This document shows positions 9,385 through 63,068 of a DNA stretch of 64,000 bases, piece by piece; positions within the stretch are counted from its first letter, which is position 1; each line of letters begins with the position of its first letter. This DNA is from Oculina patagonica (lineage: Eukaryota): the NCBI RefSeq assembly GCF_052425735.1, contig NC_135763.1, positions 17,374,298 to 17,438,297 on the forward strand, written 5' to 3'. The notes under the pieces were generated by a model, which was given only the letters and a program-made list of their open reading frames with translations, was not told where the DNA came from and ran no database searches. Made by a program: the position numbers and the translations under genes.

Positions 9385-9444
9385 CTGCAAAAGAATCAAT
9401 CAACGCAGTTGAGTTATTTTCATAGGCCGTTTCTTAACTTCTTC

Positions 9445-31910: not shown

Positions 31911-34039
31911 AGGTTTTTCCACTTTTCTTCTTTCACTAAAAGCGTATTTGGGACTTTCCACTATACACTAAAGACGGCACTTCTTGATTGCCTAAAACTT
32001 CAGAGAAGTAAAATAAGAGTGAAGATGTAGTGAAAAAAGTGCTAGAATGTGTAAACTGAAAATATAGCCTTAACTATAATCTCCACTACATGTAAATGAT
32101 TAAGTACAAACATAAAGTTGTAAATACATGTATTTGCAAATACTCGAAGGGGGCGTTTTGGCGTTTTAATACCTCTGAGACCACTTTACGTGTGGTCACC
32201 ACATTTCAGGAAAAGTTGACATTCTAGTAATAAAATTACTTATGAATCTAAGAATTTTTGAAGTCTGCGACTGCGGCATAATTTAAAGTGACTTGCTACT
32301 AATTAGTTTTGACACTATAAAAATCCTTAGCAATGTACTTTCAGATGTAAATGACGACAATTAAATTAAGTGCATTACAGTGCTTTTATCTGTATCATGT
32401 ACATGTGCGGCATCAGTTGTAAATAGCTGAGTAATGGCAATGAGTTTGAAAGTATTATTTGTGGTATCTTGGTTCGTTTTCACATGAAACGAGTATGGTG
32501 GTCCATTGTATGTAAAATTGTACATAAAAATATATAATCCCACAATTATAACTGATTAAAACTTAAAGAACCTCGTGTTTGTTGAGCTAACCAGTTTCAA
32601 TTAAAACTATTATGTTAATTATAGCTAGTCAAACGCCCACAAACTTTAAAAAATGTTATTTCTGACGATTGAGTGACTTTGATGAATTAATGAGACAGAA
32701 ATTAGTGTTCTGACGGCACAATTGAGAGGCTGGCGGGTTGTCATGGGATGCTAGATCAAGATGACTGACTGACTGACTAGTAGAATGACTGACTGACACA
32801 TCCTGAATATAAACACTTCACATTGAATGTCTTGTGTAGGTGTAGTTAGAATCTTTCACGGGCCAAGCTATCTCTCTTAACCTTAACGTAAGGGACCATG
32901 AGAAAAAAAATGAATCACTAGAAGATCGCGAGTTATTTAGCAAATAATGCATCGAGGAAGTGTAAACCAGTAAGGGCTGATTCGCACTAGCGGACAAGTT
33001 TGTAATGTCCTGACATTTGTGACCAAAAAAATTGTCGCGACAAGTTGTCAGAGACATCTTGAAGAAAAAAAAGGTGGAATTATTAGTACAATAGCTTCTA
33101 GTATCCTTGTATATTTCTCAGTGCGGCCGTCTTGAGCAAACATCAAATATGAAGGACCACGTGGTAAAAAATTCCAAATACAATTCGCATTTAAAGTGCG
33201 CGTGTTCTCATGCAGTGGAAAAATGAGTCGCATCAAGAAAACGTTTCCTTTTCCCACCCTTACGTTGGGAGAAACACTTCATTTAAAAACATGCTTTGCC
33301 TATCACGAAAATATTTCACGGCTGTAATATGATAGTAACATCACGGTGCATACTGCCGTGCTGGATTCACAATGCGAATTTAGAAGCCTTTATATTACCG
33401 CGCTGGCACGAGATCAATAGGGGTGGTACATTTAAGAAAAATACTACAAGAAATAAAGATTTTTTTGACAATTCAGCTTCCCTTGATGAAAAATTACCGA
33501 GATTGGCTTAGCCTTTCTCTAACGTAAACAGAAGATTAGATTTAGCTGTTATGTCAATCACTTTACTTCTTTCTATCTTGTTCTCAGTTGCGAAGCAAAG
33601 CTAAGGTTGTAGCTTTCGTTGTACTTTGATGAACAGGTTAACTTTGCTGTAACCTTGGTTCACTGCAAAAACTTCTCGCATAAATTGTAATAAGAACAAC
33701 TGGCTCGAAGATCAGTGAACGAGTAGTGATCAAGAGATATCCCCGAATAACATTTTATACACAATATATATTTATTAACTCTTTGTTAATAAAAAAATAA
33801 ATAGTTTATTAAATAGACATAATGACATTGCAAAATATTCACGTAATGCATAGAAAAAGTGTCCTAGAGAGCACTTAATTATTTACGATTACGACATTTT
33901 TGAAAGTGGTTTCAATTTTCTTGGAGTAGTGTCTGGTAAGTTACTGTGGGCTTTCGCCTCGTTTTCCGGTGGTGTTTTGGCGCTGTTAATTACAATGTAC
34001 AGCTGTGGGCAACACTCCAGGAACGAAGGAATAGTGCAA

Positions 34040-34156
34040 TTAACACCAAGTAAGGTTCTGATTGGTCCGGAAGCTTGGTTGGTCACATGGCCTGAGTAGT
34101 GATTCATTCTCTGCTGAGCCTGGACTGTCATTTTCTGGTTCATCAGTGGCTTGAAC
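34040..34156 (-). CDS. SLC35F6-like copy 1, terminal exon (VQATDEPENDSPGSAENESLLRPCDQPSFRTNQNLTWC*).
   Basis: The acceptor is tttgtgtacag|. The copy 2 equivalent (53427-53531) is conserved in this frame only (VQATDEPENDSPGSGESEPLLRG...). It has an acidic, Ser-rich tail like the human SLC35F6 C-terminus. Confidence 0.5.
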   Translation of the reverse strand, partial: VQATDEPENDSPGSAENESLLRPCDQPSFRTNQNLTWC

Positions 34157-34218
34157 CTGTACACAAATCACAAAATTTCATGCTGTACATGTATTTTCGT
34201 TATTCGCTGCTAATTTTA

Positions 34219-34609
34219 AGGGAACTGTGTTACGGATTGAAGCCAAATTTAGGCATGGGAAACGGCCATCAAATTCGGTGAATATAAACAAATAATTGCT
34301 TAAAACGGTGATAGAACGTTTCTATAACACAGAAAATACAAAAGAAGGTACGGATGGCCAAAAGTGAGGAAGATTGAAACGGATTGCGATGTGAAATGAA
34401 ATACTGTTGGGCTGAACAGTTTTCAAAGTTAATCTCGTTTGCTTGTAACTTTAAAATATAACGCCTGGGAGACGCATTTGGTTGTAATGAAGCTATGGTT
34501 TTGTTTTTTAGATCCACAGAAGTAATTTCTTTGCAAACTTTAAGTATCATAGCGAGTATTTGGCAAAACTTAATACAATAAACTTAACTCAGCCTTGACA
34601 CAGTCCCTT
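34219..34609. mobile_element. Member of the TTAA-MITE family (AAGGGAACTGTGTTACGG...CCTTGACACAGTCCCTT). It lies between SLC35F6-like copy 1 exons.
   Basis: It shares the termini and the internal sequence (about 80%) with 26108-26487. Confidence 0.5.
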
Positions 34610-34838
34610 CAAGTAACCGATCGAAATTAACAAAATCTAACCCCTGGTTACTTAAAACTGTGTAAGAGGAGGCACTGATCTTGGATTAGTTTTCTCCAGT
34701 ATTCCTATCAAAGTCAATTTAAGTAAAGTAACTAAAAACTTTTTTTTTCGTGTCTATGTATTTAGCCCTTGTGGGCTAATTGGGGACACCAATTAAAATT
34801 CCTAAAACTGTTAATACTTAGCCTAAAATTTATGTTAC

Positions 34839-34933
34839 CTGCTGTGGTGGTTCAGGCTTGGGCATCAATGGCGGAATTATTAAAAGTTCATTATAAAGAG
34901 CGTTGCCAAGCAGTAGGAAAAGGAATCCATCGA
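34839..34933 (-). CDS. SLC35F6-like copy 1 exon (DGFLFLLLGNALYNELLIIPPLMPKPEPPQQ). The donor is cag|gtaaca.
   Basis: It matches human SLC35F6 ...GFLILLIGTALYNGLHRPLLG. The acceptor is ttttttttccacag| (phase 1). Confidence 0.6.
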
Positions 34934-36111
34934 CTGTGGAAAAAAAAGTTGATTCAGGAAATGCAATTTCCACGCATAATATTAATTGAAAGTAAGAAAA
35001 GAAATGTTGGAGGTACAGCAGTAAAATGTTATAATTTAAAAATATGTACACAATTGAGAGAAAAATCAAAACGAATTGTCGAGTCCCAACTCACCATACA
35101 TATTCCGTTCTTCAAGAACCACTCCTCAAAAAAGAGTCATAAAATGACTATGCTGCAACTTTCAGTTGAACCAGTTTTGAATTGCCCGTCTCCTTGCCTT
35201 AATAGTTTTTCAGTTGCTCGTGGAAATTCACAGTATGTAAAAAACCACAGAGGATTGAAGACAACTTCTTACCTTGAAATATGCCATATTTACTGTCCCA
35301 AGCTTCACCAAAACCCTAACAACACAGACACAAGTGAACTACAACGTTAAGACAAAACAAATACACCATTGGAATAAAGTTATGACAAATTTCGGGCAAA
35401 AAACCCTTTACTCTTCACTGTATGTATCGTACATTAACGGTTTGACTGAGATTAAGGGGATTGACCAATAAAAGCGTCACTGGGGAAGTCAAAACGTTGC
35501 GTGGCTGAAAGACTAATAATTTTGCCGATTCATTTTGGCATCATGCCTCCAAAAAATAACACGGTAACTTCATATTCTATTTTTGCTTACGAAATTTTCC
35601 ATCTAAAACCTTTAGTGTGTTCGTTTAAAGTGAAAGGAACAGAAATTATGACTCCAATCTTAAGGATCAGAAAGCATCTGCACAAAATGATTTTTTGTGG
35701 GGTAGCAGTAGCTGTTATTGCAGTTTTCAGCAGTTTGATACACAAAGGGTCATTCTGTTAACCCTTTCGTCTCGTTCGCATACCTTCTTAACAAAAGAAT
35801 ATATTATTGCAGGCTCAACTGAATAACAGCCATTTGTTATGTGTATGTATTGCAGAGACCATTGACTCGCGGACAGGAGGCACTAACAAAGAGAACTCAA
35901 CTTAAAATTGAATGGAAACTATCAACATGGTGATATCGTTTGAATGCGAATGCAATTAACATTTAGGATATGTTTTGCAGTTTGATTTTATTACCGAACG
36001 ATTTGCATGCTTTGAAATCTTTGCTTCACGGGTCGTGAATCAATTCGTACAGAGACGACCACAATTATTAATTTCTTGAAGTGCCATAGTGTTAAATGGA
36101 AATACATGTAC

Positions 36112-36194
36112 CTCATGAAAGACGTAGTGCACAAAAAGGTCGACAACCCAAACAACAATGGTCCTGAGAGCATCTATTAATGTTGTGTGGACAG
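36112..36194 (-). CDS. SLC35F6-like copy 1 exon (VHTTLIDALRTIVVWVVDLFVHYVFHE).
   Basis: It matches human MVLDSLRTVVIWALSLALGWEAFH. The acceptor is ttttcag| and the donor is gag|gtacat. Confidence 0.65.
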
Positions 36195-36401
36195 CTGAAA
36201 AGGAGAGTGGTCATGATTTAATAATACAACAAACAAACAAACAAACAAACAAACAACCACACAAAAAACCAAGAAAAAAAAACAAGCAAACAGACTTGTA
36301 ACTTGTAAACCAATAGTACAAAGCACAGAATAGAACAATATAAAACTAAGAATTTTAATTTGCCTACTAAATGATTCATCAGATGCCACAACCATTCTTA
36401 C

Positions 36402-36467
36402 CCGTTAGAGACTTTGTGACTGAGAGGCCAAAGAAACTGTAAAACGAAACAGAACAGATATACAAAA
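36402..36467 (-). CDS. SLC35F6-like copy 1 exon (VLYICSVSFYSFFGLSVTKSLT).
   Basis: It matches human ISSIAFFNFAGISVTKELSA. The acceptor is tgttttgcag| (phase 1) and the donor is acg g|gtaaga. Confidence 0.6.
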
Positions 36468-36906
36468 CTGCAAAACAAGAGGTTAAAACAATAAACCAGT
36501 TGAATACATTAAAAGCACAAAAAAGAAAAAAGAGAGAATACTTAAAAAATATAAATCTTTTTTACACAGTCAAACCCATTAGGACGTAAGGATGATTAAC
36601 GAAGTTGGAAATGGATTAAAGAGTTAAAGAGTAGAAACAGAGGATTAAAGAGTGCCTACAATACCTACAATTAACTGTGTAAGCTAAATACCACGTCACT
36701 TAATAAATAAAGGTATTCATTTCAATATTACATGTAAAAATGTGGGGCTTGTGTTTTTTATGTTTTGTGTCGATTCCGTTAAAATGCTTGAAAAGCTTGT
36801 TCTACAAAATTACACTTTGAGCTTGTTCCATGGCTAAACGGCCTAAACAAATTTCTGCCAAGATGACATAAATACAAGCACACATACAAGTACTTTTTAA
36901 ACACAC

Positions 36907-37021
36907 CTGACATTCCTAACAGTTGCGAATTATTTTTGATCATCAATATTGCATCAAGACTGTTCTCGTAGCTGTGGTGGTTCTGGTCTCCTGGAATGTA
37001 GTACAGCACAGGAAGGACTAA
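36907..37021 (-). CDS. SLC35F6-like copy 1 exon (LVLPVLYYIPGDQNHHSYENSLDAILMIKNNSQLLGMS).
   Basis: It matches human LLVPMYYIPAG...LEDALDAF. The acceptor is ttatgttacag| and the donor is tca g|gtgtgt. Confidence 0.65.
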
Positions 37022-37154
37022 CTGTAACATAAAGATACAGAGATGAAAATGAACTTTTTCATGAAGAGTTAGCCAAGCCTTATGCTTCATTACATGTTGA
37101 TACAGGTATCAAGCTGTAAGCAAAAAGCTAGTTTTTGTTGTTGTTTTTATTATT

Positions 37155-37541
37155 AAAGGACTATGTCACGGCGATTTGGTAGATTTTTGGTCTAAACTGT
37201 TTTGAAATTAGTGGTAGGCAACTTAACTCATGAAAATCATTATCTTTGAACATCTAAAAGAAGATATAACCATAACTTGCAGATAGAAATCAAGCCATGG
37301 CTTTAAATATCGATATTTTGAAGACGCGCGGAAAGAACGTGAAAAGTTAAAGCCTTAATTTTTCAAATTGCAATCCATTTCCATCCAAGCCATTAGCAGC
37401 CAAAGACGCTTGTTAACAGTTTCAGTGCTCTAATATAGCAATTTTTGATAAAATTGGACCATTATTTTAAGGTTTCCTACAAAACAAATAAAAATAGGGG
37501 CTGTTTAAGAATCTGTTACAATTCGTGACAAAGCCCCTTTA
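37155..37541. mobile_element. Member of the TTAA-MITE family (AGGACTATGTCACGG...CGTGACAAAGCCCCT) with TTAA on both sides.
   Basis: TTAA at 37151-54 and 37542-45. It shares the internal block taaaattggaccattatt with 60650. Confidence 0.5.
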
Positions 37542-37731
37542 ATACGGACATAATTAAATAAGAGAAAGGAGAAAGGAAGATAACGATTAATTGCAGGGAT
37601 TTTTTTTTTAAAGTGAGACATTCAACTTTTCCAACATGCGAGACTCTTAAACATTATGACATGCCATGATAGATTCGTTACACTATAAAAAGCACCAAAA
37701 TGATCTATCCAAAGGTAAACGAAATACTTAC

Positions 37732-37776
37732 AAAACTCATGAAAATGATTCCAAAGAAACCTTCCACTCCAACAAC
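37732..37776 (-). CDS. SLC35F6-like copy 1 exon of 45 nt (VVGVEGFFGIIFMSF).
   Basis: It matches human AVGTEGLFGFVILSL. The acceptor is gtcataatag| and the donor is ttt|gtaagt. Confidence 0.6.
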
Positions 37777-37904
37777 CTATTATGACAAAAGAAGTCATCA
37801 AATCTACATGTAGGAATATAAATGACTGCATTTAGACTAGGACTTATAATAAAAGTAATGAGAGCAGCATAGTAACCTCCAGCAAGATTATAATGTCTAA
37901 CTTG

Positions 37905-40140
37905 GGTAGTGAGTTCCTTATGGAACTCATGTCATCTGAATGCATCATATTGACCTCGTGCTAGATTATTCTGTCTTACCAATTTCGGTGGTGAGTTCCT
38001 TATGGAACTCACGTTATCTGTGGGCAGCATATTGACCTCGTGCTAAATTATTCTGTCTCACTTGGGTGGTAAGTTCCTCATGGAACGCATGTTATCTGAG
38101 GGAAGCATATTGACCTTGTGCTAAATTATTCTGTCTTAATTGGGTGGTGAGTTCCTTATGGAACCGATGTTATTTGGGGTCACCACATTGACCTCGTGCT
38201 TGATTATTCTGTTTAACCTGGGTGGTGATTTCCTTATGGATCTCATGTTATCTGAGGGCAGCATATTGATTTCGTGCTAGATTATTAAGTGTTACGTGGG
38301 TGGTAAGTTCCTTATGGAACTCGTGCTATCTGTTGCCAGCATATTGACCTAGTGCCACATTATTCCGCCTTACTTTGGTGGGGAGTACCTTATGGAACTC
38401 ATGTTATATAAGGTCAGCATTATGATATTAACCTTGTGCTAGATTATGCTGTTTTACTTGGGTGGCGAGTTCCTTATAGAACTCATGTTATCTGAGAGCA
38501 GCATATTGACTTTGTTCTAGAGTGTTCTGTTTTACTTGGGTTGTGAGGTCCTTATGGAATTCATGTTATCTAAGGGCAACCCATTGACCTCGTGCCAGAT
38601 TTTTCTGTCTTACTTGGGCAGTGAGTTCCTTACGAAACTCGTGTTATTTTAAGTCAGCCTATTGACCTCGTGCTAGATTATTAAGTCTTACTTCGTTGGT
38701 GAGTTCCTTATGGAACTCATGTTCTATGAGGTCACCATATTGACCTTCGTTCTAGATTACTAAGTCTTGCTTGGATGGCGAGTTCCTTGTGAAACGCATG
38801 TTAACTGAGCATATTGACCTCGTGCTAGATAATTAAGTCTTTCCTGGTTGGTGAGTTCCTTATGGAACTCATGTTATCTGAGGACAGCATATTGACCTCG
38901 TGCCATATTATTTAGTCTTATTTGGGGGTCACCATCTTAACCTCGTGCTAGATTACGCTGTTTTGCTTGGGCGGAAAGTTCCTTATGGAACTCATGTTAT
39001 CTGAGGGCAGCATATTGACCTTGTGCCAGATTATTCAGTCTTACTTGGAGGGTGAGTTCCTTATGCAACTCATGTTATCCGAGGGCAGCATATTGACTTT
39101 GTGCCACATTATTCCCCTTACTTTAAAGGTGAATTCCTTATGGAACTCATGTTATCTGGGGGTACCATATTGACCTCGTGCTGGGTTGATACTCATGTTA
39201 ACTGAAGGCAGCATATTGACCTTCGTTCTAGATAATTACGTCTTACTTTAAAGGTGAGTTCCTCATGGAACTCATGTTATCTGACAGCAGCATATTGACC
39301 TCCTGCTAGATTATTATGTCTTATTTGGGTAGTGAGTTCCTTACAAAACTCGTGTTCTCTGAAGTCAGCATATTAACATTAACCTCTTGCTACATTATTA
39401 TGTCTTTCTTGGTTAGTGAGTTCCTTACGGAACTCATGTTATCTGAGGTCACCATATTGACCTCGTGCTAAATTATACTGTTTTACTTGGGTGGTTAGTT
39501 CCTTATGGAACTCATGTTATCTGAGGGCAGCATATTGACTTTGTGCTAGATTATTATGTCTTACTTGCGTGGTGATTTCCTTATGGAACTTATGTTATAT
39601 GAGGGCAACATATTAACCTCCCGCTAGATTATTATGTCTTACTTGGGTAGTGATTTCCTTACGTAACTCATGTTATCTGAGATCATCATATTGACTTCGT
39701 GCTAGATTATGCTATTTAACTTGGGTAGTGAGTTCCTTACGTAACTCATGTTATCTGAGATCATCATATTGACCTGGTGCTAGATTATGCTATTTAACTT
39801 GGGTAGTGAGTTCCTTACGTAACTCATGTTATCTGAGATCATCATATTGACCTGGTGCTAGATTATGCTGTTTAACTTGGGTAGTGAGTTCCTTATGGAA
39901 CTCATGTTATGAGTGCAGCATATTGACCTTTTTTCTTATTGACCTTATTTCTACATTATTAGTCCTGACCTTCTTTCTACATTATTAGTCCAGCTTGGGT
40001 GGTGAGTTCCTTATGGAGCTCATGTTGTATTGTTATATGTCTTATATTATTGTTTTATGTTTTACGTCTTGTATGTCTTGTTATATGTCTTAGCATATTA
40101 ACTTCGTGTAAGATTATTTTGTCTTACTTGGGGGAGGTGA
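37905..40140. repeat. Satellite array of about 28 copies of an 80-bp unit (consensus about GGTGGTGAGTTCCTTATGGAACTCATGTTATCTGAGGGCAGCATATTGACCTCGTGCTAGATTATTCTGTCTTACTTG). It lies inside SLC35F6-like copy 1 intron 4 (between exons 41549-41643 and 37732-37776) and is absent from copy 2.
   Basis: Tandem periodicity is read directly. Each unit contains the hairpin GAGTTCCTTATGGAACTC (7-bp stem). Confidence 0.85.
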
Positions 40141-41548
40141 GTTCCTTATAATGAACAAAGCTTTAAAATTATTTAAAGTATTTGGATAAAGCGTTTCAAT
40201 ATGAACAAGAATTCAGCATGGACTGTTATCGCACTTAGGAGGTTTTACCTTCCTTTCACTCTTTAACTACCCTGGGTGCCAGAGGTTTTTCTTGCGCGGT
40301 TTCCGGTGTCAGTCATGTCTTTATTATTGTTGCTTCGCCACTTGTGGTGAAAAAAATCCTCTGGTACCCAGGGTACTCTGCAACTACAACATTAAAGATA
40401 TCTGCATTAAAGAGCGAGCTACCACTATTTTATGAAAAAATGCGGCAATGTTGGTTTGAGTTTAATATGCAGGAACATACAGATCCATATACAAAGAATT
40501 GATTCTATGGAATAACAAAGATATTAAAATCAATAACAAAATGATCTTCCTTCCCACTTGGTTCGATAAAGGAATTTCTACTTTAGAACACCTTCTCGAC
40601 CCAAATCTAAATTTCCTTACCTTTGAAGAATTCAAATTCCGACAACAGCTGCAAACTAATATTTTGACTTATTATGGAGTAATAAACGCTATCCCAAAAG
40701 AATATAAAAGGTCAATAAGGCAAACTGATGCACCTCAAGATTGTCTTGAACAGAGATCGCAGAACTTGAAAACTCTTAGAACTAAGGCTATTCACAAAGG
40801 TTTGTTAAGGCTTTTTTTGAAGAACCCACCGCCACCGCTATTTTCCAATACAAAATTCTGCATAATATAGTTTTTATCAAAAGCAAGCTGTTTAAAGCTA
40901 AACTCACAAGTAGCGATCTATCCCATTTATGCTTAAATACAAAACAGGATCTGAGGCATATATATGTTGTTCCAATGTCTGGCGGTCTCTGAATTCTGGA
41001 TAGCTTTTCTAGACTGGTACGAGAATCACACGTCAATGGAGCTAGAATTGTCGACCGTCAAAATCTTGTACGGTACTATTGGTAACGACAAACTCAACAA
41101 GTTAACCAATCATCTCTTGCTACTCGCCAAATACTATATATACTGCTGTAGTATCAATGAAGACCCTTTATCTAAGTGTTTATCAAACAATAGTGATGAA
41201 CAAAGCTGAAATCGAAAAATGAGTAGCAACAAGTACTAATCTACCTGAAGTCTACTATAATAAATGGAAACCTTTAATCGACAAGAAGATTGTTCATTAG
41301 CACTATTATTATTGTTGATGTATCCAGTAGCTCTTCATTGCTCTTTGTAGAATGTAACGTACCGTATAGTATTGTGTGTATAGTAAATAGTGTAAGTTCT
41401 ATGCGCGGCGAGTGTAAAATAATTTTAAAATTTAGTATTGTAACTAGTGTAAGTTCTCGCTGTATGTCTTTATGTGTTGCAATAAATAAAATGAAAAAAA
41501 TAAATGAAGTAATGTTTTCACTTCTTGACTTTTAAAGCAAGAACTGAC

Positions 41549-41643
41549 CTGTAGAGGATGGAACTTTCTTTTCTTTAAGAAGAATTCTTCTACAACCATC
41601 TGAGTGGCGCTGAAACACTGTGCAGCTAAGATTAAAACAATTC
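41549..41643 (-). CDS. SLC35F6-like copy 1 exon (IVLILAAQCFSATQMVVEEFFLKKRKFHPLQ).
   Basis: It matches human DLLIIMAQIIVAIQMVLEEKFVYKHNVHPLR. The acceptor is ttttgtgtccag| and the donor is cag|gtcagt. Confidence 0.65.
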
Positions 41644-41954
41644 CTGGACACAAAATAACGCGGAAAAGGATCCATGGTTAAAAGTAATAAAAAAAGTTAT
41701 TGATCTGTTGCACGTAGATGAAAAAAAAGATATATATTATATTAATGTAATTAGTTACTGACAATAAAATAAAAAAAAAATATGTTTTCTTTGCTACGCT
41801 TTTTATAATGGTGCATTAAAAAAGGGTGTGTCAGGGCAAACTTTCACTGCGTGTGTAGTGTAGGTGGACGCCTCGTATCGTCCTTGCAAAATGCTGCATA
41901 TAATAATCAAATTATTAACCATTCCATTTATAATAATGAAGGAAAACACATGTC

Positions 41955-42095
41955 AGTCAGTCAGTCAGTCAGTCAGTCAGTCAGTCAGTCGGTCGGTTGG
42001 TTGGTCGGTTAGTCAGTCAGTCAGTCAGTCAGTCAGTCAGTCAGTCAGTCAGTCAGTCAGTCAGTCAGTCAGTCAGTCAGTCAGTCAGTCTACAT
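41955..42095. repeat. (GTCA)n microsatellite of about 33 units with a few GGTC/GGTT variants.
   Basis: Read directly. Confidence 0.9.
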
Positions 42096-42167
42096 TTGTT
42101 GATTTTAGCAAAATGCAAAAACTAAAGAAATCTTCTTCTGTTAATGTTGCTGTGTGTAATTGTTTAC

Positions 42168-42246
42168 CTAATACCACCTGCCCTTTAGTGGCTCCCTGGT
42201 GATTGTCTCTGAGAACACTTGATAATCCAACAAGCACTAAACCTAA
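42168..42246 (-). CDS. SLC35F6-like copy 1 exon (LGLVLVGLSSVLRDNHQGATKGQVVL).
   Basis: It matches human IAGLVVVGLADLLSKHDSQHKLSEVITG. The acceptor is ttcgcag| and the donor is tta g|gtaaac. Confidence 0.6.
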
Positions 42247-53214: not shown

Positions 53215-53460
53215 CTGTGACACTTAAGGAATGAAGATTGGTCCAAAATCGAAACACGTGATTAAACAACACTAGTGTAAGGCCCTGATTGGCTTCAAAT
53301 CAAAACACGTGATATAACAGCACAAGTGTAGGGTCCTGATTGGTTTAAAATTGAAACACATGATACAAAAACATGGTTACAAACACAACTGCACGGTACT
53401 GATTGGTCCAAAATCGGAACACGTGATTAAACAACGCCAGTGTACGTTCCTGATTGGTCA
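53215..53460. repeat. Four tandem copies of a 57-bp unit (CTGATTGGyyyAAAATCGAAACACGTGATTAAACAACAyyAGTGTAnGGyCC), each containing CTGATTGG (CCAATCAG reverse). They sit immediately 3' of the SLC35F6-like copy 2 stop codon. Copy 1 has a single unit.
   Basis: Read directly. The copy 1 equivalent at 34044-34075 has one unit. Confidence 0.6.
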
Positions 53461-53531
53461 CGTCCCCTGAGTAATGGTTCACTTTCTCCTGACCCTGGGC
53501 TGTCATTTTCTGGTTCATCAGTGGCTTGAAC
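53427..53531 (-). CDS. SLC35F6-like copy 2, terminal exon (VQATDEPENDSPGSGESEPLLRGRDQSGTYTGVV*).
   Basis: It is the paralog of 34040-34156. The acceptor is tttttttgtacag|. Confidence 0.45.
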   Translation of the reverse strand, partial: VQATDEPENDSPGSGESEPLLRGRDQSGTYTGVV

Positions 53532-53987
53532 CTGTACAAAAAAACACAACATTTCATGGTGTGCTAATTTGCTTTTATACAACCAGGCGTTATAAGCTAC
53601 AATTGAAGTTTAAACAGCAGACAACAAAACCAACAAGGTATAACCCTTCACAAAACTTCTGAAGCACCGATGTGCGGAAAAATAACGTTTGTTGTTAAAT
53701 TGGAAATAAACTGCAATATTGAGCAGAATAGGATACAATTATAAGAGTGGGGGGCTAAATAAATGATGCATATGACGAACTAAGATTTCCTTGTCCTTGT
53801 TTTAATGCGATTGTCACATCTAATTTAACTTACAGTCAGTCAGTCGGAAACAGAGAACAAAACAAAGAAAGGGAAACCACAATTGATAACTTTCAAAATT
53901 GGAACTTTCGAAGCGCTAGAGGATTAGTCCTGGATTAGCTTTATCCTGGTTTTTATAGTAAAATAATGATGAATACAATGATGTTAC

Positions 53988-54082
53988 CTGTTGTGGTGGA
54001 TCAGGCTTTGGCATCAATGGCGGAATAATTAAAAGTTCATTATAAAGGGCGGTGCCCAGCAGTAAGAAAAGGAATCCATCAA
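53988..54082 (-). CDS. SLC35F6-like copy 2 exon (DGFLFLLLGTALYNELLIIPPLMPKPDPPQQ).
   Basis: It is the paralog of 34839-34933. The acceptor is ttttccacag| and the donor is cag|gtaaca. Confidence 0.55.
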
Positions 54083-55439
54083 CTGTGGAAAATAAAAGTC
54101 GAATCAAAAAATGCTATTTTCAGGCATTTAATAAATTGAAATGCATATATTAAAAAGGACGTAATGAAAGCGTTAAAAGGGGTCTGAACCCTCCCTGACT
54201 TGGGCACAGCGTTAAATACAACGTTTACATGAACTTGGTAAAGACCCTTTGATTTTCATCCCCGACTGCAATTATTAGTATTTTCCGTTGAAATAGGAGG
54301 TGCAACAGTATAACATAATTTAAAAAAAATATATACAATGATTAAATAGTGAAACCCGAAACTAAATTGTTGGTTCCAACTTGCCATATTCCCTCCTCAA
54401 CAAATAAGTGCCCTAAAACTTTTGAGTTGAAATAGTTTTGGCTTCTCATCTTCTTGCCTTAGGTTATAAATATTCTTCCACATAATCGTTAAAAGCACTA
54501 CATTTCTTTTTTGCCACAGCTCAATAGAGCATGTCAACAACGACAGAGAAAGACGAGCTCTTACCTTGAAATATGCCATATTTACTGTCCCAAGCTTCAC
54601 CAAAAGCCTATCAACATAGACAAAAGTGACATTATCAGGAAACAAAATTACCATCTGACTACATGTAACAGCAAACTTACGTGTGAAAGGCCCTTTTACC
54701 GTATGCATGTTGTCACTAGGCATGCATTAGGACAAGCATCAGCATAAGTGCATAAAAAGAACGAACACACTCATTTTTTTTATACATGTACTATTCCCGC
54801 ATGGCATAAGCAAAAGCACAAGACAAGACAATCGTTCGCTTATCTTGTGCTAATGCTTATACGTATTCCTAGTGAGGACGGCGTAAGAAGAATGAGTGTG
54901 TTTGTTCTTCTTATGCGGTTATGCTGGTGCTTGTGTTTATGCACAGTGATAACCAACCTTAAGTTTTATTCACTTCTAAGAGGTTTGTATTGTTTTGTTT
55001 CGTTCTTATTTTGGTGGCGAACCGGTTAACTAGCTTTTTAGCTAAGTGTTCTGACCACACCAAATCAATTATTGCATTGCATTGTATTGCACTGGTAAGG
55101 AATGAAGTAGGCTCGATTACCAAGCGTGAGAGAGGGAGAGAATCGAGCCTAGGAATAAAGTCACTTTTAAGGGAAATGGCAACGTTGCATAACAAAATTA
55201 TGCCTCCACAAAGCATTACAATCATGTTAAAGTTCACTGCATTTTTTATAAAATTTGATGTCCAGAATATTCAACATGTTCGTTCAAGGTAAATGGATGT
55301 AGTTTTGACATGAACTTTGGCGTCTTAATATGAATGGAAATGATCAACACGGACGCAAATCATCGTTGTTTGCACGCAAATGAAGAATTTTCCTCAACTA
55401 ACATTTAATTGTTTTTTAGTCATTTATTTGTAAAAAGAT

Positions 55440-56391
55440 ATAGTGTACCGTATTTTCTCAATTAAACGCCGGGTACCGAATAAACGCCGGTCTGCAAGGT
55501 GGAGTTGAAAGTAGGCTCCTCAGGTATTTATTTGAGGTATAAAAAGCTGTAGGTATAAAATATAGATTTAGCCAAGCCTAAAAGCGGAGCTCCACACTTA
55601 TTTTCTTGTTCTTAAAATTTTGTGAAAATACTTTCATTGAAAATACTGTTAGTATAGGAGATTGCACGACCTTTTCGTAAAATTCATGATAAATATGGCC
55701 GCCTGATGTTTTGAAAGTTCTCAAAATTAGGCGAGTGCAATTTGAGAACTTTTAAAACATGACGAGTACCTTTTAATGATGAATTGTACGAGAAGTTCGT
55801 GCGATTTTTTAATTTATAGTATACAAAACAAAATTACACTTCGGAACAGTAAACTTTCTAACTCCTCGGTCTGGTCTTCAGAATACTTCAGGTGAACTTC
55901 GAATTCTAAAACCTTCCTAAGTCTTCGGACAGACATCAGAAAATCCTCGGAAGAGTTTGGTTCAACTCAAGTCTTCGAATCAACTTCGGAAATACTCGGA
56001 AGTCTTCGGGTAGACTTCAGAAATCTTCGGAAGTGTTCGGGTCAACTTCAGAAGACTTCTGGTCAACGTCGGAAAGAAAACTAAATGGTACTCCTATTAA
56101 TCGTATCTATAACAAAATTCTCGATTTTGATTGGTTCTTCGCGCGCCTATTTGTCGCGTAATTGGCGCGAGATCACGTGGGTGTCCAATTATAGGTATCC
56201 AATTTGAGCAACTTCAAATTGGATACCTGTAATTGGACACCTACGCCATTCGCGCATCAATCACACGCATATAAATGGGTTCTTTCTTGCTGTTTTCCCA
56301 CTGTTTGTACAACCAGTTGAATTTACCATTGACTTTTTCACACTAAAAAAGATTCTCAAAGACTTCCTAACCTCGAATTTTGTTATTGATA

Positions 56392-56430
<39 letters not shown>

Positions 56431-57313
56431 AGAGTAATCGTGCTCGTAATTTCAAATCGTTCTCGCGCTGCGCGCTCGGCCGATTTTGAAATTACTCGCC
56501 CCATTACTTCCTGAATTGTACTCCACTCAGTCCAATTACTATTATTAATTGCACTGCTCTCGTCCAATCAGAATCCAGTAATATTTTTGAGTGTACTATA
56601 ATTGAAGTAATTAAACGTATACTAGTCAAGAACGATCCATAGACGAAATAAATCGTCCACTTCAATCGAAAAAAAAAAATACGTTTACAAAATCCTGCCA
56701 TTACCCTGGGCAAGAAAAGTAGTTGAAATATTCGGCCAATAAATCTTGCCCTCCTGCCGTTGTACCAGCCTTGTAATCAATTTGGTTTTAAAAGAAAAGT
56801 AGGATTTGAGCCCGCGATGCAACGGAAAACTCAAAAAGACACATGAACTCGATGAGTTGTACATCTGAGCCCGCGATATGGTCATGTGATACTGGTCAGC
56901 GGATACCTTGTTTTGACAGCTGTCAATTGACCATAACATGGGTGACCAATATCAAAGAAACAAGTTGACGTTCCTTGGGATATGATATGATGACATTCTC
57001 CTCCTCCCGATCGGGTTGCCTTGTGACTCCCTTCCCCCTCCCCGAAAGTCTGTAGGCGCGGCGGGCGTACGCTCACTCGATAACCAAATTTTCTCGGCTC
57101 TATGGGTTAACCAAATTTCCTTACCCATGGTGCTCCGCTGGCGCGCTTCGCGCACTGGAGCTCCGCTATTAGCAAGATGCATTTCTGTCAAATGACGAAA
57201 ACCGTTGCTTAAAAAAATGGGCTCAAGTAAACTGCAGGAGTCAAATAAACGCCGAGTCTGCCAGGCTCAGTTTAAAATAAACACGGGGAGCGTTTAATTG
57301 AGAAAATACGGTA
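55440..57313. mobile_element. Non-autonomous Tc1/mariner-type element of about 1.87 kb. It has a TA TSD and TIRs CCGTATTTTCTCAATTAAACGCC with subterminal AAACGCCGG repeats. It contains an internal block of about 20-bp tandem repeats (55850-56090) and several long palindromes (56183-56245, 56400-56560).
   Basis: The left end is at 55438 (ta|ccgtattttctc). The right end is at 57313 (gagaaaatacgg|ta). No ORF. Confidence 0.5.
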
Positions 57314-57367
57314 TGTGGTAAACTAGCTCGTACGTCCACAATTTGCCTAAAATGACATTTGCAGTAC

Positions 57368-57450
57368 CTCATGAAAGACGTAGTGTACAAAAAGGTCGAC
57401 AACCCACACAACAATCGTCCTGAGAGCATCAATAAGTGTTCTGTGGACAG
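57368..57450 (-). CDS. SLC35F6-like copy 2 exon (VHRTLIDALRTIVVWVVDLFVHYVFHE).
   Basis: It is the paralog of 36112-36194 with identical splice signals. Confidence 0.6.
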
Positions 57451-57891
57451 CTGAAAAGGAAAAACTAATTCAATGTATCCCATTGTATCCCAATATTAAT
57501 AAATCATTTAATGTCATTTTAAAAATGACATGTCAAAGGTAATACTCCCCTTTGTGTTTTACTCCTTTCGTTTTCAGCAAAATACCTTTTAAAAATTTAA
57601 CAGAAACCACCCTTTCTAACAAGGTTGTTATATCGTTTAAATGGCACATTACACAATTAATAAAAGTTAGTCACTTTTGGGATTCATCTACCGGCCGACA
57701 ACAAAACCATAATTCAAAAACAATTTAATAAATGACTGAAGAATCCATACAACTTTGCATTAAAAATTAAGATCATTTGTACAAAGATAAAATAAAAACA
57801 AACTAATGGTACAAAGCAATTCGAAAACCTGAAGAGTAACAGGAACAAGGAATTGTTATTTCCTGCAGAAATTGCTCGGAACCCTTCTTAC

Positions 57892-57957
57892 CTGTTAAAG
57901 ATTTTGTGACTGAGAGTCCAAAGAAATTGTAAAACGAAATAGAACAGATATACAAAA
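57892..57957 (-). CDS. SLC35F6-like copy 2 exon (VLYICSISFYNFFGLSVTKSLT).
   Basis: It is the paralog of 36402-36467. Confidence 0.55.
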
Positions 57958-58248
57958 CTGCAAAACAAAAGGTTAAAACATTAATCCTATGAATAACATT
58001 TGTGGCAAAGAAAATAAAAATAGAATTTCTTAGAAAATAAATAGACGTTCGTTTTACCTGCAAATGGTCGCGATAAAAGCAAGCTTTTGACGATTTTTTG
58101 AAAAAAGACAACACCGTTATTACGATTTAAGATACGTTTCGATTGAAAAGTGTCGTTGACAGTTATAATGTTAAATTTGAATTTGTTAACCTTAAAAACA
58201 GATCCGTGATAACAAGTGTTAGTTATTTAATAGAATAACATATACCGT

Positions 58249-58695
58249 ATTTTCTCGATTAAACGCCGGACCCCGATTAAACGCCGGCCTCGTATAAACG
58301 CCGGGTTAAAATTGCTAGTTTTTAAATAAACGCCGGGGGCGTTTGTTCGAGGTCTCGGCGTTTATTTGAGGTCAAGCTAACAAGTAACTATATTCTGTTT
58401 GTCACAAATCTCGATTTCAACATAAACTATCCAATCCGTAACAGTGCACCTTTGGGAAATAATCACCTTTGGATACCCAGGGACACTTTTTCGGGGCAGA
58501 ACGAAGAGAAAAATCGTCCCGCTTTGACAAACTGCCCCTTTGTCTTGAAGATCGGTAACAATAAAACAATCTGAAAAATTGGCAGAAAGTTGTAGTCCGT
58601 TAATAAACGCCGGGCCCCGATTAAACGCCGGCTTCAAATAAACGCCGGGTTCATGAAGCCAAGTTTGAAATAAACGCCGGGGGCGTTTATTTGAG
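58249..58695. mobile_element. A 450-bp MITE of the same family as 55440-57313 (TIR CCGTATTTTCTCGATTAAACGCCGG...), with a TA TSD. It lies in an SLC35F6-like copy 2 intron.
   Basis: The termini match the larger copy. Subterminal AAACGCCGG is present at 4-5 copies per end. Confidence 0.55.
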
Positions 58696-58884
58696 AAAAT
58701 ACGGTAAGCTTATACATGTAACAACAATTATAACATTGTTGTGATTTAACAAGGTGCTATGGCCTAGACGCACACTCTAAATTTAACCACACACATCAGA
58801 AGAGCATTTCTTGCAAGTGAGTTATTTGCCCCCTTCTCTTCGGTTTGCAACAATGTGTGATATCACTGCATTTTATTTCCACAC

Positions 58885-58999
58885 CTGACATAATTAACAG
58901 TTTGGCATCATTCTTCATCATCAACAGTGCATCAAGACTGTTCTCGTAGCTGTGGTGGTTCTGGTCTCCTGGAATGTAGTACAGCACAGGAAGAACTAA
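58885..58999 (-). CDS. SLC35F6-like copy 2 exon (LVLPVLYYIPGDQNHHSYENSLDALLMMKNDAKLLIMS).
   Basis: It is the paralog of 36907-37021. Confidence 0.6.
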
Positions 59000-59075
59000 C
59001 TGTAACATAAAGACACGTACAGGCAGTAGTCAGACACAGGCAGTAGTCAGACACAGGCAGTAGAAGCACGCACGC

Positions 59076-59429
59076 TATTCAGGTACGCTTTTAGTGCACC
59101 CAGAAGGGAAAATGAAAAAGTCTTTTGGTGACAGATCTTTCAGTGTCAGTGCGCCTACACTTTGGAATGCGCTTCCAGCTAGCCTTCGTAATATTAGTTC
59201 TATTTTTAGTTTTAAATCTCGTCTTAAAACATATCTTTTTAAATTAGCTTTTTTTTTTTTACTTTTAGATCTAGTCAATAATGTGTATATAGTTAGTATA
59301 TTTCAATATTTTTATGTTTTAATATTGTAATGTATATAGTTAGTATATTTTAATATTTTAATGCGCATTTGCTCATTTACATGTTAAAAAGCACAATATA
59401 AATTCATAAATTATTATTTATTATTATTA
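59076..59429 (+). mobile_element. SINE-like retroposon insertion of about 350 bp with an A/T-rich 3' tail. It is flanked by a duplication of about 16 bp (TAGTCAGACACAGGCAGTA). It lies in the SLC35F6-like copy 2 intron.
   Basis: The flanking direct repeats are at 59042-59075 and 59430-59450. The tail is ...ataaattattatttattattatt. An internal pseudo-ORF peptide (...SFKSRLKTYLF...) is like a motif I believe recurs in metazoan repeat-derived ORFs, recalled from memory rather than checked. Confidence 0.4.
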
Positions 59430-60266
59430 GTCAGACACAGGCAGTAAGTCAGATACATTTTACTGCATGTGCCAAGCTGTAGGCAGATGAAATACATTGT
59501 AGTCGGAATAGAGCGATTTCCACGGTCCCGGTGTCAAAAGTAATTTGCATTTCCTTTGTTTTTTGCATTATTACGCTAAGTAATTGGTTTAAAAAAAAAC
59601 TCCCGCCACTTTCTCATTCAGTCAGAAGGAAAACCAAAACCAACCATGACTCGCTCACACACATTTTCAAGTACTTTACATGCTTCCCGTACATGTATTT
59701 GCTTCGAGTTGTGACTAGATCACTGGATTTTCTGTGTCTTTTGTGATTGGCCAGAGTCATTACTTTGGTTTTGGTTAACGAAACTCAATCTAAAATCGCT
59801 CTTTAATTGTCTTTTTAAGCATCTAGTGTCCCTTCAACTGAACCAAATTAATATACCACATGCATGTTCGGTTATTTGTGCATGGGGCAAATTTATCATT
59901 TTTCAGATATTTCAATTTAGTTGTATTGCGGAATGTGGCTCGTTGTCATTAATTTTATTAACAATTTAAATGTGGCAAACAGTCTTAAGGTAGTGCATGC
60001 CTTGATGTGTGTTACGTGTATGTTCAGGTATGATTTTAAATAAACAGTTATTGCTGGGAATGTGCACATAGTCTTGGCTTTTGGTTTTCAGGGAGAAAAA
60101 TACAACTTTTTACACCAGTAATTTCACTATAAGTAAAACATTAATTTTAGCAGGATTTTGAAAAAGTAATCGAGTTAGATTTCAATCTGGGACTCTCAAC
60201 CAATACGAGACAACCTTCTGCTTTTAAAACAATAAACAAATAATTACAAATGAAATGTGTACTTAC

Positions 60267-60311
60267 AACACTCATGAAAATAATTCCAAAGAAGCCTTCC
60301 ATTCCAACAAC
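60267..60311 (-). CDS. SLC35F6-like copy 2 exon of 45 nt (VVGMEGFFGIIFMSV).
   Basis: It is the paralog of 37732-37776. Confidence 0.55.
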
Positions 60312-60371
60312 CTAAATCATGACAAAAAACGCCAACAAATTTAACTGACTACATGTATGCGTGACTTAAAA

Positions 60372-60740
60372 CACTGTCACAGGGATTTCGATTTTTTTCG
60401 GTTAAAAGTACTAATATCGGCGAACAGGTATTCTCGTACATGAAATGCACCTAGTCAATCAAGATGGAGATATAAACTATATTGTTGTTGAAGGAACAAG
60501 GAAGCCATAATAAATTTTAGGTGTTTTTCCATTCCACAAGGACAAAAATTGACAAAAATCGAGCTGATTTTTTCAAGTTGAGATCTTAAGTTCCTCATGG
60601 CATTGTAATAATACCACTTGTTTATTGCTTCAGTACACTTCCATGGTGATTTTTAATAAAATTGGACCACTATTCGTAGTTTAATATGTCTTTAGGCTCT
60701 TGAGTTTTTTAAGTGAAACTGGTGACACTGTGCCCCTTTA
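60372..60740. mobile_element. Degenerate member of the TTAA-MITE family (...GGTGACACTGTGCCCCT|TTAA).
   Basis: The right TIR and TTAA are intact. The left end is eroded. The internal sequence is homologous to 37155-37541. Confidence 0.35.
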
Positions 60741-61085
60741 ATATTAACAGCTTTAGACTGCAAGGTTAGAGGTTTTACACAGAAATGCTGAAATTACACA
60801 CAGGTAAAACCTTGCAAAAATCATTCTGATGTAATGTATATGAAATGATTCATATATGAACTGCGGATGTATATAAAAGTGATAAATTATCATCGCAGTG
60901 AAGCCCTGAAGTTTTTTCAGGCTTCTTTATTTCCAATTGCTTAAATTAGAAATTCACTGCGATGATCATTTATCACTTTCATATACATCCACAGTTCATA
61001 ATATGAATCATTTCATATACATTACATCATTTCACTCCTCTCACGGGAAAATATGAACTCACAGTTGACTTCGCTCCCAATGCGT

Positions 61086-61125
61086 GGCTTCAATAGCTCA
61101 GTTGGTAGAGCATCGCACCGGTATC

Positions 61126-61159
<34 letters not shown>
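61086..61159 (+). tRNA. tRNA-like gene with a perfect 7-bp acceptor stem (GGCTTCA/TGAAGCC). It has a D-arm TAGCTCAGTTGGTAGAGC, a T-arm ACGGGTTCGAATCCCGT, an anticodon loop CCGGTAT (Thr-GGU-like if canonical) and one extra nt before position 8. A T7 Pol III terminator follows immediately.
   Basis: The cloverleaf is readable by eye. The run ctgaattttttt follows directly downstream. The anticodon loop and the A31·C39 mismatch match the 8-kb units. Confidence 0.5.
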
Positions 61160-61337
61160 TGAATTTTTTTCAGGCTTCTTTATTTCCAATTGCTTAAATT
61201 GGAAATTCACTGCGATGATCATTTATCACTTTCATATACATCCGCAGTTCATATATGAATCATTTCATATACATTACATCATTTCACTCCTCTCACTGGA
61301 AAATATGAACTCACAGTTGACCTCGCTCCCAATGCGT

Positions 61338-61410
61338 GGCTTCAATAGCTCAGTTGGTAGAGCATCGCACCGGTATCGCGGAGGTCACAGGTTGAGTCCC
61401 GTTGAAGCCC
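61338..61410 (+). pseudogene. Tandem second copy of the 61-kb tRNA-like unit, with a degenerated T-loop (ACAGGTTGAGTCCCGT). It is a likely tRNA pseudogene.
   Basis: The 243-bp direct repeat 60906-61148 and 61149-61393 carries a second unit, which has a 1-nt deletion and substitutions in the T-arm. Confidence 0.45.
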
Positions 61411-61537
61411 TGAATTTTTTTCTAGGCTTCTTTATTTCCAATTGCTTAAATTGGAAATTCAATCACTGCGATGATCATTTATCACTTTAATAATCATTCT
61501 AGCACTTGGCTGTTTTCACTTTTTAACAAAAACTTAC

Positions 61538-61632
61538 CTGTAAAGGATGGTACTTCCTTTTCTTCAAAAATAATTCCTCTACAATCATCTGTGTGGCACT
61601 GACGCTCTGACCAGCCAAGATTAAAACAATAC
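61538..61632 (-). CDS. SLC35F6-like copy 2 exon (VLILAGQSVSATQMIVEELFLKKRKYHPLQ).
   Basis: It is the paralog of 41549-41643. Confidence 0.6.
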
Positions 61633-61828
61633 CTGATCACAAAATAAGAGAAAAAGAATACACAATGGTTTGAGGAGAAAAGAAAACATACTGTTAATTA
61701 GCACTTTGTGATTAGTTACGGATATGTTAAAAGTATTTGACAAAAAAACACATTAACTTAATTACTATACCAAATGTCGAGAACATATAAATATGTAATT
61801 ACTATTAGTGATGCATGTAATTGTTTAC

Positions 61829-61907
61829 CTAATACAACCTGCCCTTTAGTGGCTCCCTGGTGATTGTCTCTCAGAACACTTGATAATCCAACAAGTACTA
61901 AACCAAA
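61829..61907 (-). CDS. SLC35F6-like copy 2 exon (FGLVLVGLSSVLRDNHQGATKGQVVL).
   Basis: It is the paralog of 42168-42246. Confidence 0.55.
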
Positions 61908-62883
61908 CTGCAAATTATATATGATAACAGATAAAATGATCAGTAAATTTCTACATGGTAAATGTAATTTTGACCATTGATACCCTATTCTACTAGTTTA
62001 AGGCAAACATTCAGTTGTATCAATGAGTGTCAATAAACAAAACTGTTCTAAAGATAGTTATCACAACTACACATACATGTGCATTTTGCTGATTACAACA
62101 TCACTCTTTAGCAAGCTGCTATCAAATTTTCCTTGCCTGGGGCTGTTGCTTGCTTATAATTTATTTGGCAGATCAATGACTTGCCTGGGCACTTATTAAC
62201 TAAAACCAACCAATGATAACAGTGCTTCATTGGCGGCCTTCAGGTCCAATGTTTTCAAGTACTAAGTACATTTTATAGACTGGGTAAAGTTTCTACAGTG
62301 TACAACCGGCCTCTGTTTTTTTAAAGTAGTGTACATAAATATCTCACTAGTGACCAAGCTTGCTTGGAACCATACCAGGAGAATATCAACCCTTGCTGCA
62401 CTTGATCTGAAACATTTGTCAACATGAAGGGCAAATATCTCCCAGTACAGCCCTTGCACTAGGGTAATAAGATTTCAATATAATCATGACAGCAGCTGCT
62501 CACAGTCTGAAACAACCACAGGATATTTGCCTACTTGTAGTATCATACTCCATAGGCTGCAAAATGAAAAGTGCACTCTGCATGTTTTACATGCATACCA
62601 ACCCTCCAAGTTAAGACCATTTTAGTCGCCATGGCGACTAAAATTTTGGAGCTGGCGACTGGATTTGAACTGTAGTCGCCAGCCTGGCAACTAAAATTGA
62701 GAAGGATTGAAAGCGTGAACTTAATTTAGCTACTAAAATTTTTCACTGGCGACCAAACTTGAGCAGTCAGTTGCCAAATGGCCACTAAGAAAAAAAATAA
62801 ACTTGGAGGGTTGCATATATATATTAGTTTAGAGCTAAAGTAAAGATTGCAACAAAGATAAATAATATTTTTTGACATCATAC

Positions 62884-62943
62884 CATGGTAACAACCATGC
62901 CAATCCAGTGAATTGGCCATAACTTTCTCTTGAGAAATATTTT
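62884..62943 (-). CDS. SLC35F6-like copy 2 exon (KIFLKRKLWPIHWIGMVVTM).
   Basis: It is the paralog of 42873-42932. Copy 2 exons further 5' were not found before the window ends. Confidence 0.55.
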
Positions 62944-63068
62944 CTAAACAAAAGAAAAAAAAAAGATTTAAAACAGAAAGTATGAAAATTAATAGTGCAA
63001 GTCAAGTTTCAAGTTTATTTTTTTGCCACTCATAGACTAATAAAATAACAATACAGCATATTAAAGAA

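Follow-up and report, generated by a model that had tools for sequence, protein, structure and literature searches.

Tandem duplication and unequal divergence of an SLC35F6-like gene in the coral Oculina patagonica

Two SLC35F6-like genes lie next to each other on the minus strand of a 64,000-nucleotide stretch of the Oculina patagonica genome (NCBI RefSeq assembly GCF_052425735.1, contig NC_135763.1, positions 17,374,298 to 17,438,297 of the forward strand). We call this whole stretch the window and count positions from its first letter. The arrangement raises the question of how and when the pair arose, and whether both copies are still maintained. SLC35F6, also known as C2orf18, ANT2BP or 'ROAM1', is an orphan lysosomal protein that belongs to the SLC35 nucleotide-sugar-transporter family, a part of the drug/metabolite transporter (DMT) superfamily. 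UDP-GlcNAc binding and regulation or binding involving AMPK have been proposed for mammalian SLC35F6 only (PMC13382097). Our analysis makes it probable that the whole gene was duplicated head to tail in the Oculina lineage, and that the upstream gene (copy 2) has since been conserved while the downstream gene (copy 1) stayed alive and diverged in function. In type, the event is an ordinary tandem gene duplication with unequal divergence.

Self-comparison of the window by blastn gave exactly ten collinear matches on the same strand, connecting 34076-42982 (copy 1) with 53451-62992 (copy 2) at 80.5-92.9% identity (E 1e-19 to 5e-49). Read on the minus strand, each block carries an AG acceptor and a GT donor in both copies. 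Joined together, the ten blocks form open frames of 265 codons in copy 1 and 261 codons in copy 2, each with a terminal stop. The ten minus-strand exon pairs reported in an earlier sequence-based description of this DNA, here called the original prediction, were recovered. The two pairs it gave as examples, 36112-36194 with 57368-57450 and 41549-41643 with 61538-61632, match spliceable exons to the base, align without gaps and share 76 of 83 and 79 of 95 bases, respectively. Nine of the ten pairs agree in length and phase; the last exon measures 117 nt in copy 1 versus 105 nt in copy 2. A distance of about 19.5 kb between partners, as had been proposed, applies at the two ends only; taken over all pairs, the offsets vary within a range of 19.1-22.5 kb.

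The size of the duplication had been put at about 9.5 kb. This value is merely the portion of copy 2 that falls within the window, and the duplicated unit is the whole gene. When coral orthologs were mapped to the window, six further coding exons of copy 1 were identified upstream of the ten shared ones, with the start codon at 49570. Copy 1 (34040-49570, minus strand), as defined by tblastn with full-length coral orthologs and by AG/GT borders, is a complete SLC35F6-like gene of 16 coding exons: 49570-49473, 47230-47148, 46211-46147, 46033-45963, 45271-45210, 43257-43178, 42932-42873, 42246-42168, 41643-41549, 37776-37732, 37021-36907, 36467-36402, 36194-36112, 35315-35273, 34933-34839 and 34156-34040, the last including the stop codon. 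All 16 exons have exact AG/GT borders and together they form an open reading frame (ORF) of 1257 nt. The product of copy 1 is 100% identical over 418 amino acids to KAL9969783.1 / XP_078372205.1 of Oculina patagonica, and a protein search likewise showed 100% identity of copy 1 with 'solute carrier family 35 member F6-like isoform X2 [Oculina patagonica]' (XP_078372206.1). Directly before the gene, at 49577-49717 (minus strand), lies its proximal upstream or 5' untranslated region, which shows 66-71% identity to the region upstream of single-copy orthologs (sensitive blastn, two ortholog loci); only about 150 bp before the start codon still match the ancestral-like upstream sequence.

Copy 2 (53427-62943, minus strand) is represented in the window by exons 7-16 of a conserved, ancestral-like paralog, located at 62943-62884, 61907-61829, 61632-61538, 60311-60267, 58999-58885, 57957-57892, 57450-57368, 54607-54565, 54082-53988 and 53531-53427 (with the stop codon). 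Exons 1-6 lie beyond the window end, and mapping of coral orthologs gave no match for exon 6 between 62943 and the end at 64000. The two copies are adjacent and on the same strand, the start codon of copy 1 following 3.9 kb downstream of the stop codon of copy 2 (53427). Thus, the duplication took in the entire 16-exon gene together with no less than about 150 bp directly upstream of it, and its period today is about 19-22 kb. A search for the duplication breakpoints revealed no remaining similarity between the 3' flanks of the copies, and no fragment of the zf-C4H2 gene, a neighbor of this locus in other corals, was found between them.

The assignment to SLC35F6 is based on the closest named relatives. 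All named proteins among 120 listed matches, from cnidarians, molluscs, amphioxus and echinoderms, are SLC35F6 or SLC35F6-like (49-93% identity, 88-100% coverage), these names being those of the sources themselves and not experimentally based. Copy 1 is 79-84% identical to the SLC35F6-like proteins of other corals and 49-57% identical to SLC35F6 of molluscs, amphioxus and sea urchin. With the Pfam model SLC35F (PF06027) full-length copy 1 scored 27.1 bits and the ten-exon proteins of copy 1 and copy 2 scored 22.8 and 29.5 bits (cut-off 21); the EamA model gave 30.8 bits for full-length copy 1 (cut-off 28.2). Together with the SLC35F6-like name that NCBI gives to copy 1, these scores and relatives agree with the original prediction of two tandem SLC35F6-like paralogs on the same strand. 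In the last exon both copies contain a [D/E]XXXL[L/I] motif, ENESLL in copy 1 and ESEPLL in copy 2. A signal of this type directs human and mouse SLC35F6 to lysosomes, the human version being EQERLL (PMC11203873). Both coral copies thus resemble the human protein in keeping a C-terminal dileucine-type motif, for which a sorting role in corals is putative.

The original prediction had suggested a dN/dS calculation between the copies and had held that their differences are almost exclusively synonymous. Applying the Nei-Gojobori method to the ten shared exons, we obtained a synonymous divergence (dS) of 0.335, a nonsynonymous divergence (dN) of 0.084 and an overall ratio (omega) of 0.25. The 95 differences, corresponding to 12% of the coding nucleotides, are distributed over third (49) and first or second (46) codon positions. 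About half are nonsynonymous (48.7 versus 46.3 synonymous) and amino-acid identity is 86%, contrary to what had been stated. The changes are also very unequally distributed. When either Orbicella or Desmophyllum serves as the reference, copy 1 has 30-31 private amino-acid changes and copy 2 has 2-3 (Tajima relative-rate test, p ~1e-6), and the asymmetry was likewise seen with five further outgroups. About 30 of the 36 amino-acid changes between the copies are private to copy 1. A three-taxon analysis with Orbicella as outgroup gave dS 0.146, dN 0.048 and omega 0.33 (95% confidence interval (CI) 0.17-0.83) for the branch of copy 1, and dS 0.171, dN 0.008 and omega 0.05 (95% CI 0.005-0.13) for that of copy 2; Desmophyllum as outgroup led to the same picture. 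The protein of copy 1 evolves about seven times faster than that of copy 2. Purifying selection on both copies, as originally proposed, is consequently upheld insofar as both are constrained, but its strength is far from equal, with branch values of about 0.33 and about 0.05.

Simulation of neutral drift over the branch of copy 1 kept an open 418-codon frame without premature stop in about 0.15% of cases (P 0.0015), and the probability of keeping all 60 splice-dinucleotide bases was about 1.6e-4. As its ORF is intact, each of its 30 splice sites is in place and the [D/E]XXXL[L/I] motif is kept, copy 1 has been under constraint, and this through most of its history, although far more weakly than copy 2.

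The accelerated evolution of copy 1 extends to conserved sites. An alignment of 68 full-length family members has 91 columns with a conservation of 95% or more, and copy 2 covers 61 of them. Copy 1 is altered in eight of the 91 (T123N, G129A, R142G, L157F, I291V, N295S, R310T and T359N), copy 2 in none of its 61. In addition, a four-way tail alignment of copy 1, copy 2, Orbicella and Desmophyllum revealed a 16-nt insertion, CTTCCGGACCAATCAG, at 34058-34073 (minus strand) in the last exon of copy 1. Because this insertion shifts the frame, copy 1 ends with the new C-terminus PSFRTNQNLTWC, and 34042-34040 has become its stop codon. The terminus lost by this change, ...SGTYTGVV, is common to copy 2 and Orbicella (...SEPYTGVV in Desmophyllum). 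The dileucine-type motif just upstream of the altered tail is kept in both copies. Copy 1 thus departs from the SLC35F6 family by its eight deviations at near-invariant positions and its frameshifted tail, and Oculina departs from it by having two tandem genes where the other sampled corals have one at the locus. Neither orthologs of the copy 1 type nor the private states of copy 1 were found in other anthozoan sequences of the collection. Copy 2 is 93% identical to the proteins of Orbicella and Desmophyllum and 87-93% identical across Orbicella, Desmophyllum and Porites, and its exon lengths equal those of Orbicella and Desmophyllum (exons 7-16) and of Porites (exons 7-15). Copy 2 probably keeps the ancestral role. 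Copy 1 is most likely a functionally diverged paralog, either sub- or neofunctionalised, and not a dead copy.

The age of the duplication was analyzed by comparison with Orbicella faveolata, Desmophyllum pertusum and Porites lutea. Each of these corals has one SLC35F6-like gene at the locus, and the adjoining 10 kb to its left and right contain no second copy. The gene is flanked in all three by a divergent zf-C4H2 gene about 1 kb upstream and by a convergent gene for a leucine-rich repeat (LRR)-containing G-protein-coupled receptor (GPCR) downstream. The single-copy genes (XP_020622440-type in Orbicella) have 16 exons like those of Oculina. Exons 7-15 have equal lengths and AG/GT borders in both Oculina copies and the three other corals, and the length of exon 16 is shared by Orbicella and Desmophyllum. 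Over exons 7-15 (227 codons, ungapped) dS was 0.317 between the two copies, 0.49-0.51 between either copy and Orbicella, 0.54-0.58 to Desmophyllum and more than 1.3 to Porites. Divided by the dS to Orbicella, the dS between the paralogs gives 0.63 (bootstrap CI 0.42-0.89). Parsimony-informative sites are distributed 12:5:5 in favor of grouping copy 1 with copy 2, and this grouping received neighbor-joining bootstrap values of 97% with all sites and 86% with third positions. Both the dS values and the trees assign the duplication to the Oculina lineage, to which it appears to be specific, yet old. We found no paper on the Oculina patagonica nuclear genome or on a coral SLC35F6 duplication in the literature.

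Pocillopora verrucosa (CM071755.1, gene at 10001-19722 of the extracted locus) also possesses a divergent second SLC35F6 paralog, which shares 71% identity with copy 2. It is followed by an LRR-GPCR gene as at the ancestral locus and preceded by collagen/Ig genes. A tandem pair like that of Oculina was considered for Pocillopora and rejected, since the divergent paralog has no tandem partner within 10 kb and does not resemble copy 1 (4 of 36 copy-1 states). It may represent an independent, older duplication of the gene pair.

Of about 8100 intronic bases of copy 1, a sensitive alignment matched only 576 to copy 2, mostly beside exons. In the same way 321-508 bases could be matched to Orbicella, and a comparison of Orbicella with Desmophyllum yielded 347. 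At each of these distances the introns are close to saturation, and as orthologous introns between species are equally diverged, intron divergence does not single out the paralogs.

Several other explanations of the pair were weighed against a lineage-specific duplication with a conserved and a diverged live copy. The main rival accepts the duplication and regards copy 1 as a redundant duplicate under relaxed selection on its way to a pseudogene, the residue losses and the frameshifted tail being damage. The seven-fold higher omega of copy 1, the alteration of eight near-invariant positions including two arginines, and the destruction of an anthozoan-conserved C-terminus by a frameshift would all be expected then, as would the absence of a copy-1-type ortholog from all other sampled species. 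A very recent loss of constraint would be compatible with our tests. Decay over the whole branch should have led to an omega of 1 instead of an average of 0.33, however, and the 418-codon ORF and the GT/AG borders of all 15 introns are intact, for which the joint probability under neutral drift is well below 1e-3. The dileucine motif is retained as well. With 30 of 30 splice dinucleotides intact and a sole frameshift confined to the last 12 codons, copy 1 does not have the features of a pseudogene, and we regard this explanation as unlikely, although it has to be taken seriously. A duplication that predates the split from Orbicella and Desmophyllum, with loss of the second copy there and with Oculina exons that look young through gene conversion, would fit the almost unalignable introns, the 36% of bootstraps in which first and second codon positions group copy 2 with Orbicella and Desmophyllum, and the existence of a divergent second SLC35F6 paralog in Pocillopora. 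It would require three independent losses, and it conflicts with the grouping of copy 1 with copy 2, which third positions and all sites support at 86-97%. Introns of orthologs in different species are just as saturated, and the Pocillopora paralog shares just the four copy-1 states mentioned above. Gene conversion itself was examined and rejected: divergence does not vary significantly from exon to exon (chi-square p = 0.29), and there is no signal of a conversion tract. We consider such an older origin very improbable. An assembly artefact, in which two haplotypes of one gene were placed in tandem, deserves mention because corals have heterozygous genomes and assemblies do contain false tandem duplications at times. 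Here the copies differ by 12% of coding nucleotides and 14% of amino acids, by intron lengths and repeats, by almost unalignable introns and by a frameshifting indel. This divergence is far beyond allelic and exceeds half of the distance to another coral family. The figures effectively refute the artefact, to which we give next to no credence.

Some observations weigh against the duplication history that we favor. The activity of either copy is deduced solely from sequence constraint and, for copy 1, from RefSeq models. The upper confidence limit of omega for copy 1 comes close to 1 when Desmophyllum is used as outgroup (0.97), and the introns are much more diverged than a dS of 0.32 naively predicts. 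First and second codon positions alone support the grouping of copy 1 with copy 2 by only 57%, which is expected because the long branch of copy 1 pulls outward. Copy 2 is seen from exon 7 on, its exons 1-6 lying outside the window, and its protein was not found in the protein collection.

According to the history that we consider probable, the entire 16-exon gene would have been duplicated head to tail in an ancestor of Oculina patagonica after the split from the lineages of Orbicella, Desmophyllum and Porites. The ancestral order of zf-C4H2, SLC35F6 and LRR-GPCR would have become an arrangement in which copy 2, copy 1 and the LRR-GPCR gene follow each other. The upstream copy 2 would have remained under strong purifying selection and presumably kept the ancestral role. 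The downstream copy 1 would have kept about 150 bp of proximal upstream sequence and would then have undergone faster protein change, the replacement of eight conserved residues and the rewriting of its tail. Since that time the introns would have diverged to near saturation and come to contain different repeats in each copy. The pattern is that of the classical asymmetric divergence of tandem duplicates, with one ancestral copy and one accelerated copy with an omega below 1, and nothing sets this case apart.

Tentatively, and with considerable doubt, one may go further and see in copy 1 a neofunctionalised transporter. The loss of R142 and R310 (R142G, R310T), N295 and T359 might have altered its substrate or made it a non-transporting regulator, and the frameshift might have re-routed the protein within the endo-lysosomal system by removing the ...YTGVV terminus, which contains a YXX-phi-like motif, and sparing the dileucine signal. 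The C-terminal tails decide the localisation of SLC35F1 and SLC35F6 in human cells (PMC11203873), so that the change of the tail would provide Oculina with a second, differently located SLC35F6-type carrier. No solved structure of SLC35F6 was found and the nearest one, a CMP-sialic acid transporter (6i1r), is a remote match; the lost arginines were therefore not mappable to a binding site, and we infer their mechanistic meaning. The pair documents an orphan transporter that was duplicated in tandem in one lineage and whose copies diverged in a clearly asymmetric way, and it is of little importance beyond the annotation of coral genomes. If copy 1 has a new substrate or location, it would be a natural experiment on which residues, in particular the two invariant arginines and the C-terminal tail, matter in SLC35F6. 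Copy 1 is already present in RefSeq and GenBank. For the protein of copy 2 no 100% match was obtained in the protein collection, and its annotation should therefore be checked.

The introns of the two copies carry different repeats, as originally described: a satellite in copy 1, and tRNA-derived units and an element resembling a miniature inverted-repeat transposable element (MITE) in copy 2. That these insertions were gained, as had been claimed, is not supported in its polarity, the intron sequence being near saturation both between copies and between species. The arrays had been assigned to intron 4; both sit in the equivalent intron of the two copies, which is intron 9 of the 16-exon gene. 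The satellite of copy 1, for which 80 bp had been given, was confirmed with a period of 78 bp by Tandem Repeats Finder (TRF) and self-blastn. It comprises 26.3 copies at 37859-39929, followed by degenerate remnants to about 40150, and it has no matches in the Orbicella, Desmophyllum and Porites loci. Dispersed repeats of copy 1 are located at 34216-34620, 35756-35837 and 46744-47033. The last of these belongs to a dispersed repeat resembling a short interspersed element (SINE) at 46626-47033 (intron 2), which contains a spurious ORF (…GSNGPGFEPWLGSLHLIVFLGRTLYSHSTFLHPGV). A second fragment of it lies at 35756-35837 (intron 13), and a relative is present within the zf-C4H2 gene region of Orbicella (about 6950-7500 of that locus). 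The repeat at 34216-34620 in the last intron is about 400 bp in length and 78% identical to 26104-26500 in a GPCR intron. Intron 8 of copy 1 also contains a (GTCA)n microsatellite of 35 units at 41952-42090.

In intron 9 of copy 2 TRF identified a 252-bp unit repeated 2.3 times at 60899-61492 (plus strand), with an inverted partial unit at 60827-60902. Each of two tRNA-derived segments precedes a T-run, one at 61086-61159 (Rfam tRNA 50.5 bits) and one at 61338-61410 (35 bits), and the predicted tandem tRNA-like pair was accordingly found by TRF, ARAGORN and Rfam alike. Both score above the Rfam gathering threshold; unit 1 folds as a cloverleaf and the B box of unit 2 is degraded. The anticodon loop reads CCGGUAU, with C at position 33 and the anticodon GGU ('Thr'). 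U33 is near-universal in tRNAs, and to our knowledge a GGU 'Thr' anticodon is not normally used by eukaryotes. Relatives of the segment were detected in the loci of Desmophyllum and Porites as well as at 8073-8319 of the window, which points to a dispersed tRNA-derived repeat. From their sequence, such a repeat seems more likely than working tRNA genes. In their tRNA segment with elements like an A and a B box, in the T-run behind it and in having dispersed relatives, the units resemble tRNA-derived SINE-type repeats; unlike these, the Oculina units form a 252-bp tandem with an inverted partial copy. A 360-bp near-palindrome at 8021-8380 of the window, 90% self-complementary, contains two inverted tRNA-like units at 8087-8153 (minus strand) and 8239-8305 (plus strand), with Rfam tRNA scores of 41.4 bits each and about 79% similarity to the units in the intron of copy 2.

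The MITE predicted for copy 2 corresponds to a MITE-like element at 58243-58706 in intron 11, with 25-nt terminal inverted repeats (TIRs) that are 92% complementary to each other. Fragments related to it were found by blastn at 55416-55493 and 57228-57325, and the 2.8-kb intron 13 of copy 2 contains several palindromic elements. A 51-bp tandem repeat of 2.5 copies at 53245-53373 starts just past the stop codon of copy 2. No ORF of at least 110 amino acids recognisable as a transposable-element protein was present in the region.

The conserved downstream neighbor of the locus is also present in the window. The last exon of the LRR-containing GPCR gene occupies 30154-31728 on the plus strand (ORF 30277-31728), convergent with copy 1, and its product shows 81-82% amino-acid identity over more than 500 amino acids to the gene downstream of the SLC35F6-like gene in Orbicella and Desmophyllum. 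Further GPCR exons lie upstream at about 29544, 27020, 20779, 19289 and 10068. An intron of this gene contains a 1028-bp inverted repeat (21167-22194 and 23184-24211, 99.1% identity, spacer of about 990 bp) with only small ORFs, which represents a recent inverted duplication or else an element with long TIRs. A direct duplication of about 550 bp in two blocks (90-98% identity) connects 18717-19270 with 25638-26585 in the GPCR region. The left end of the window contains three collinear pairs of direct repeats with 76-85% identity (2262-2402 with 8713-8857, 3749-4141 with 8998-9392 and 4388-4595 with 12436-12643), which may be dispersed repeats or duplicated upstream GPCR exons.

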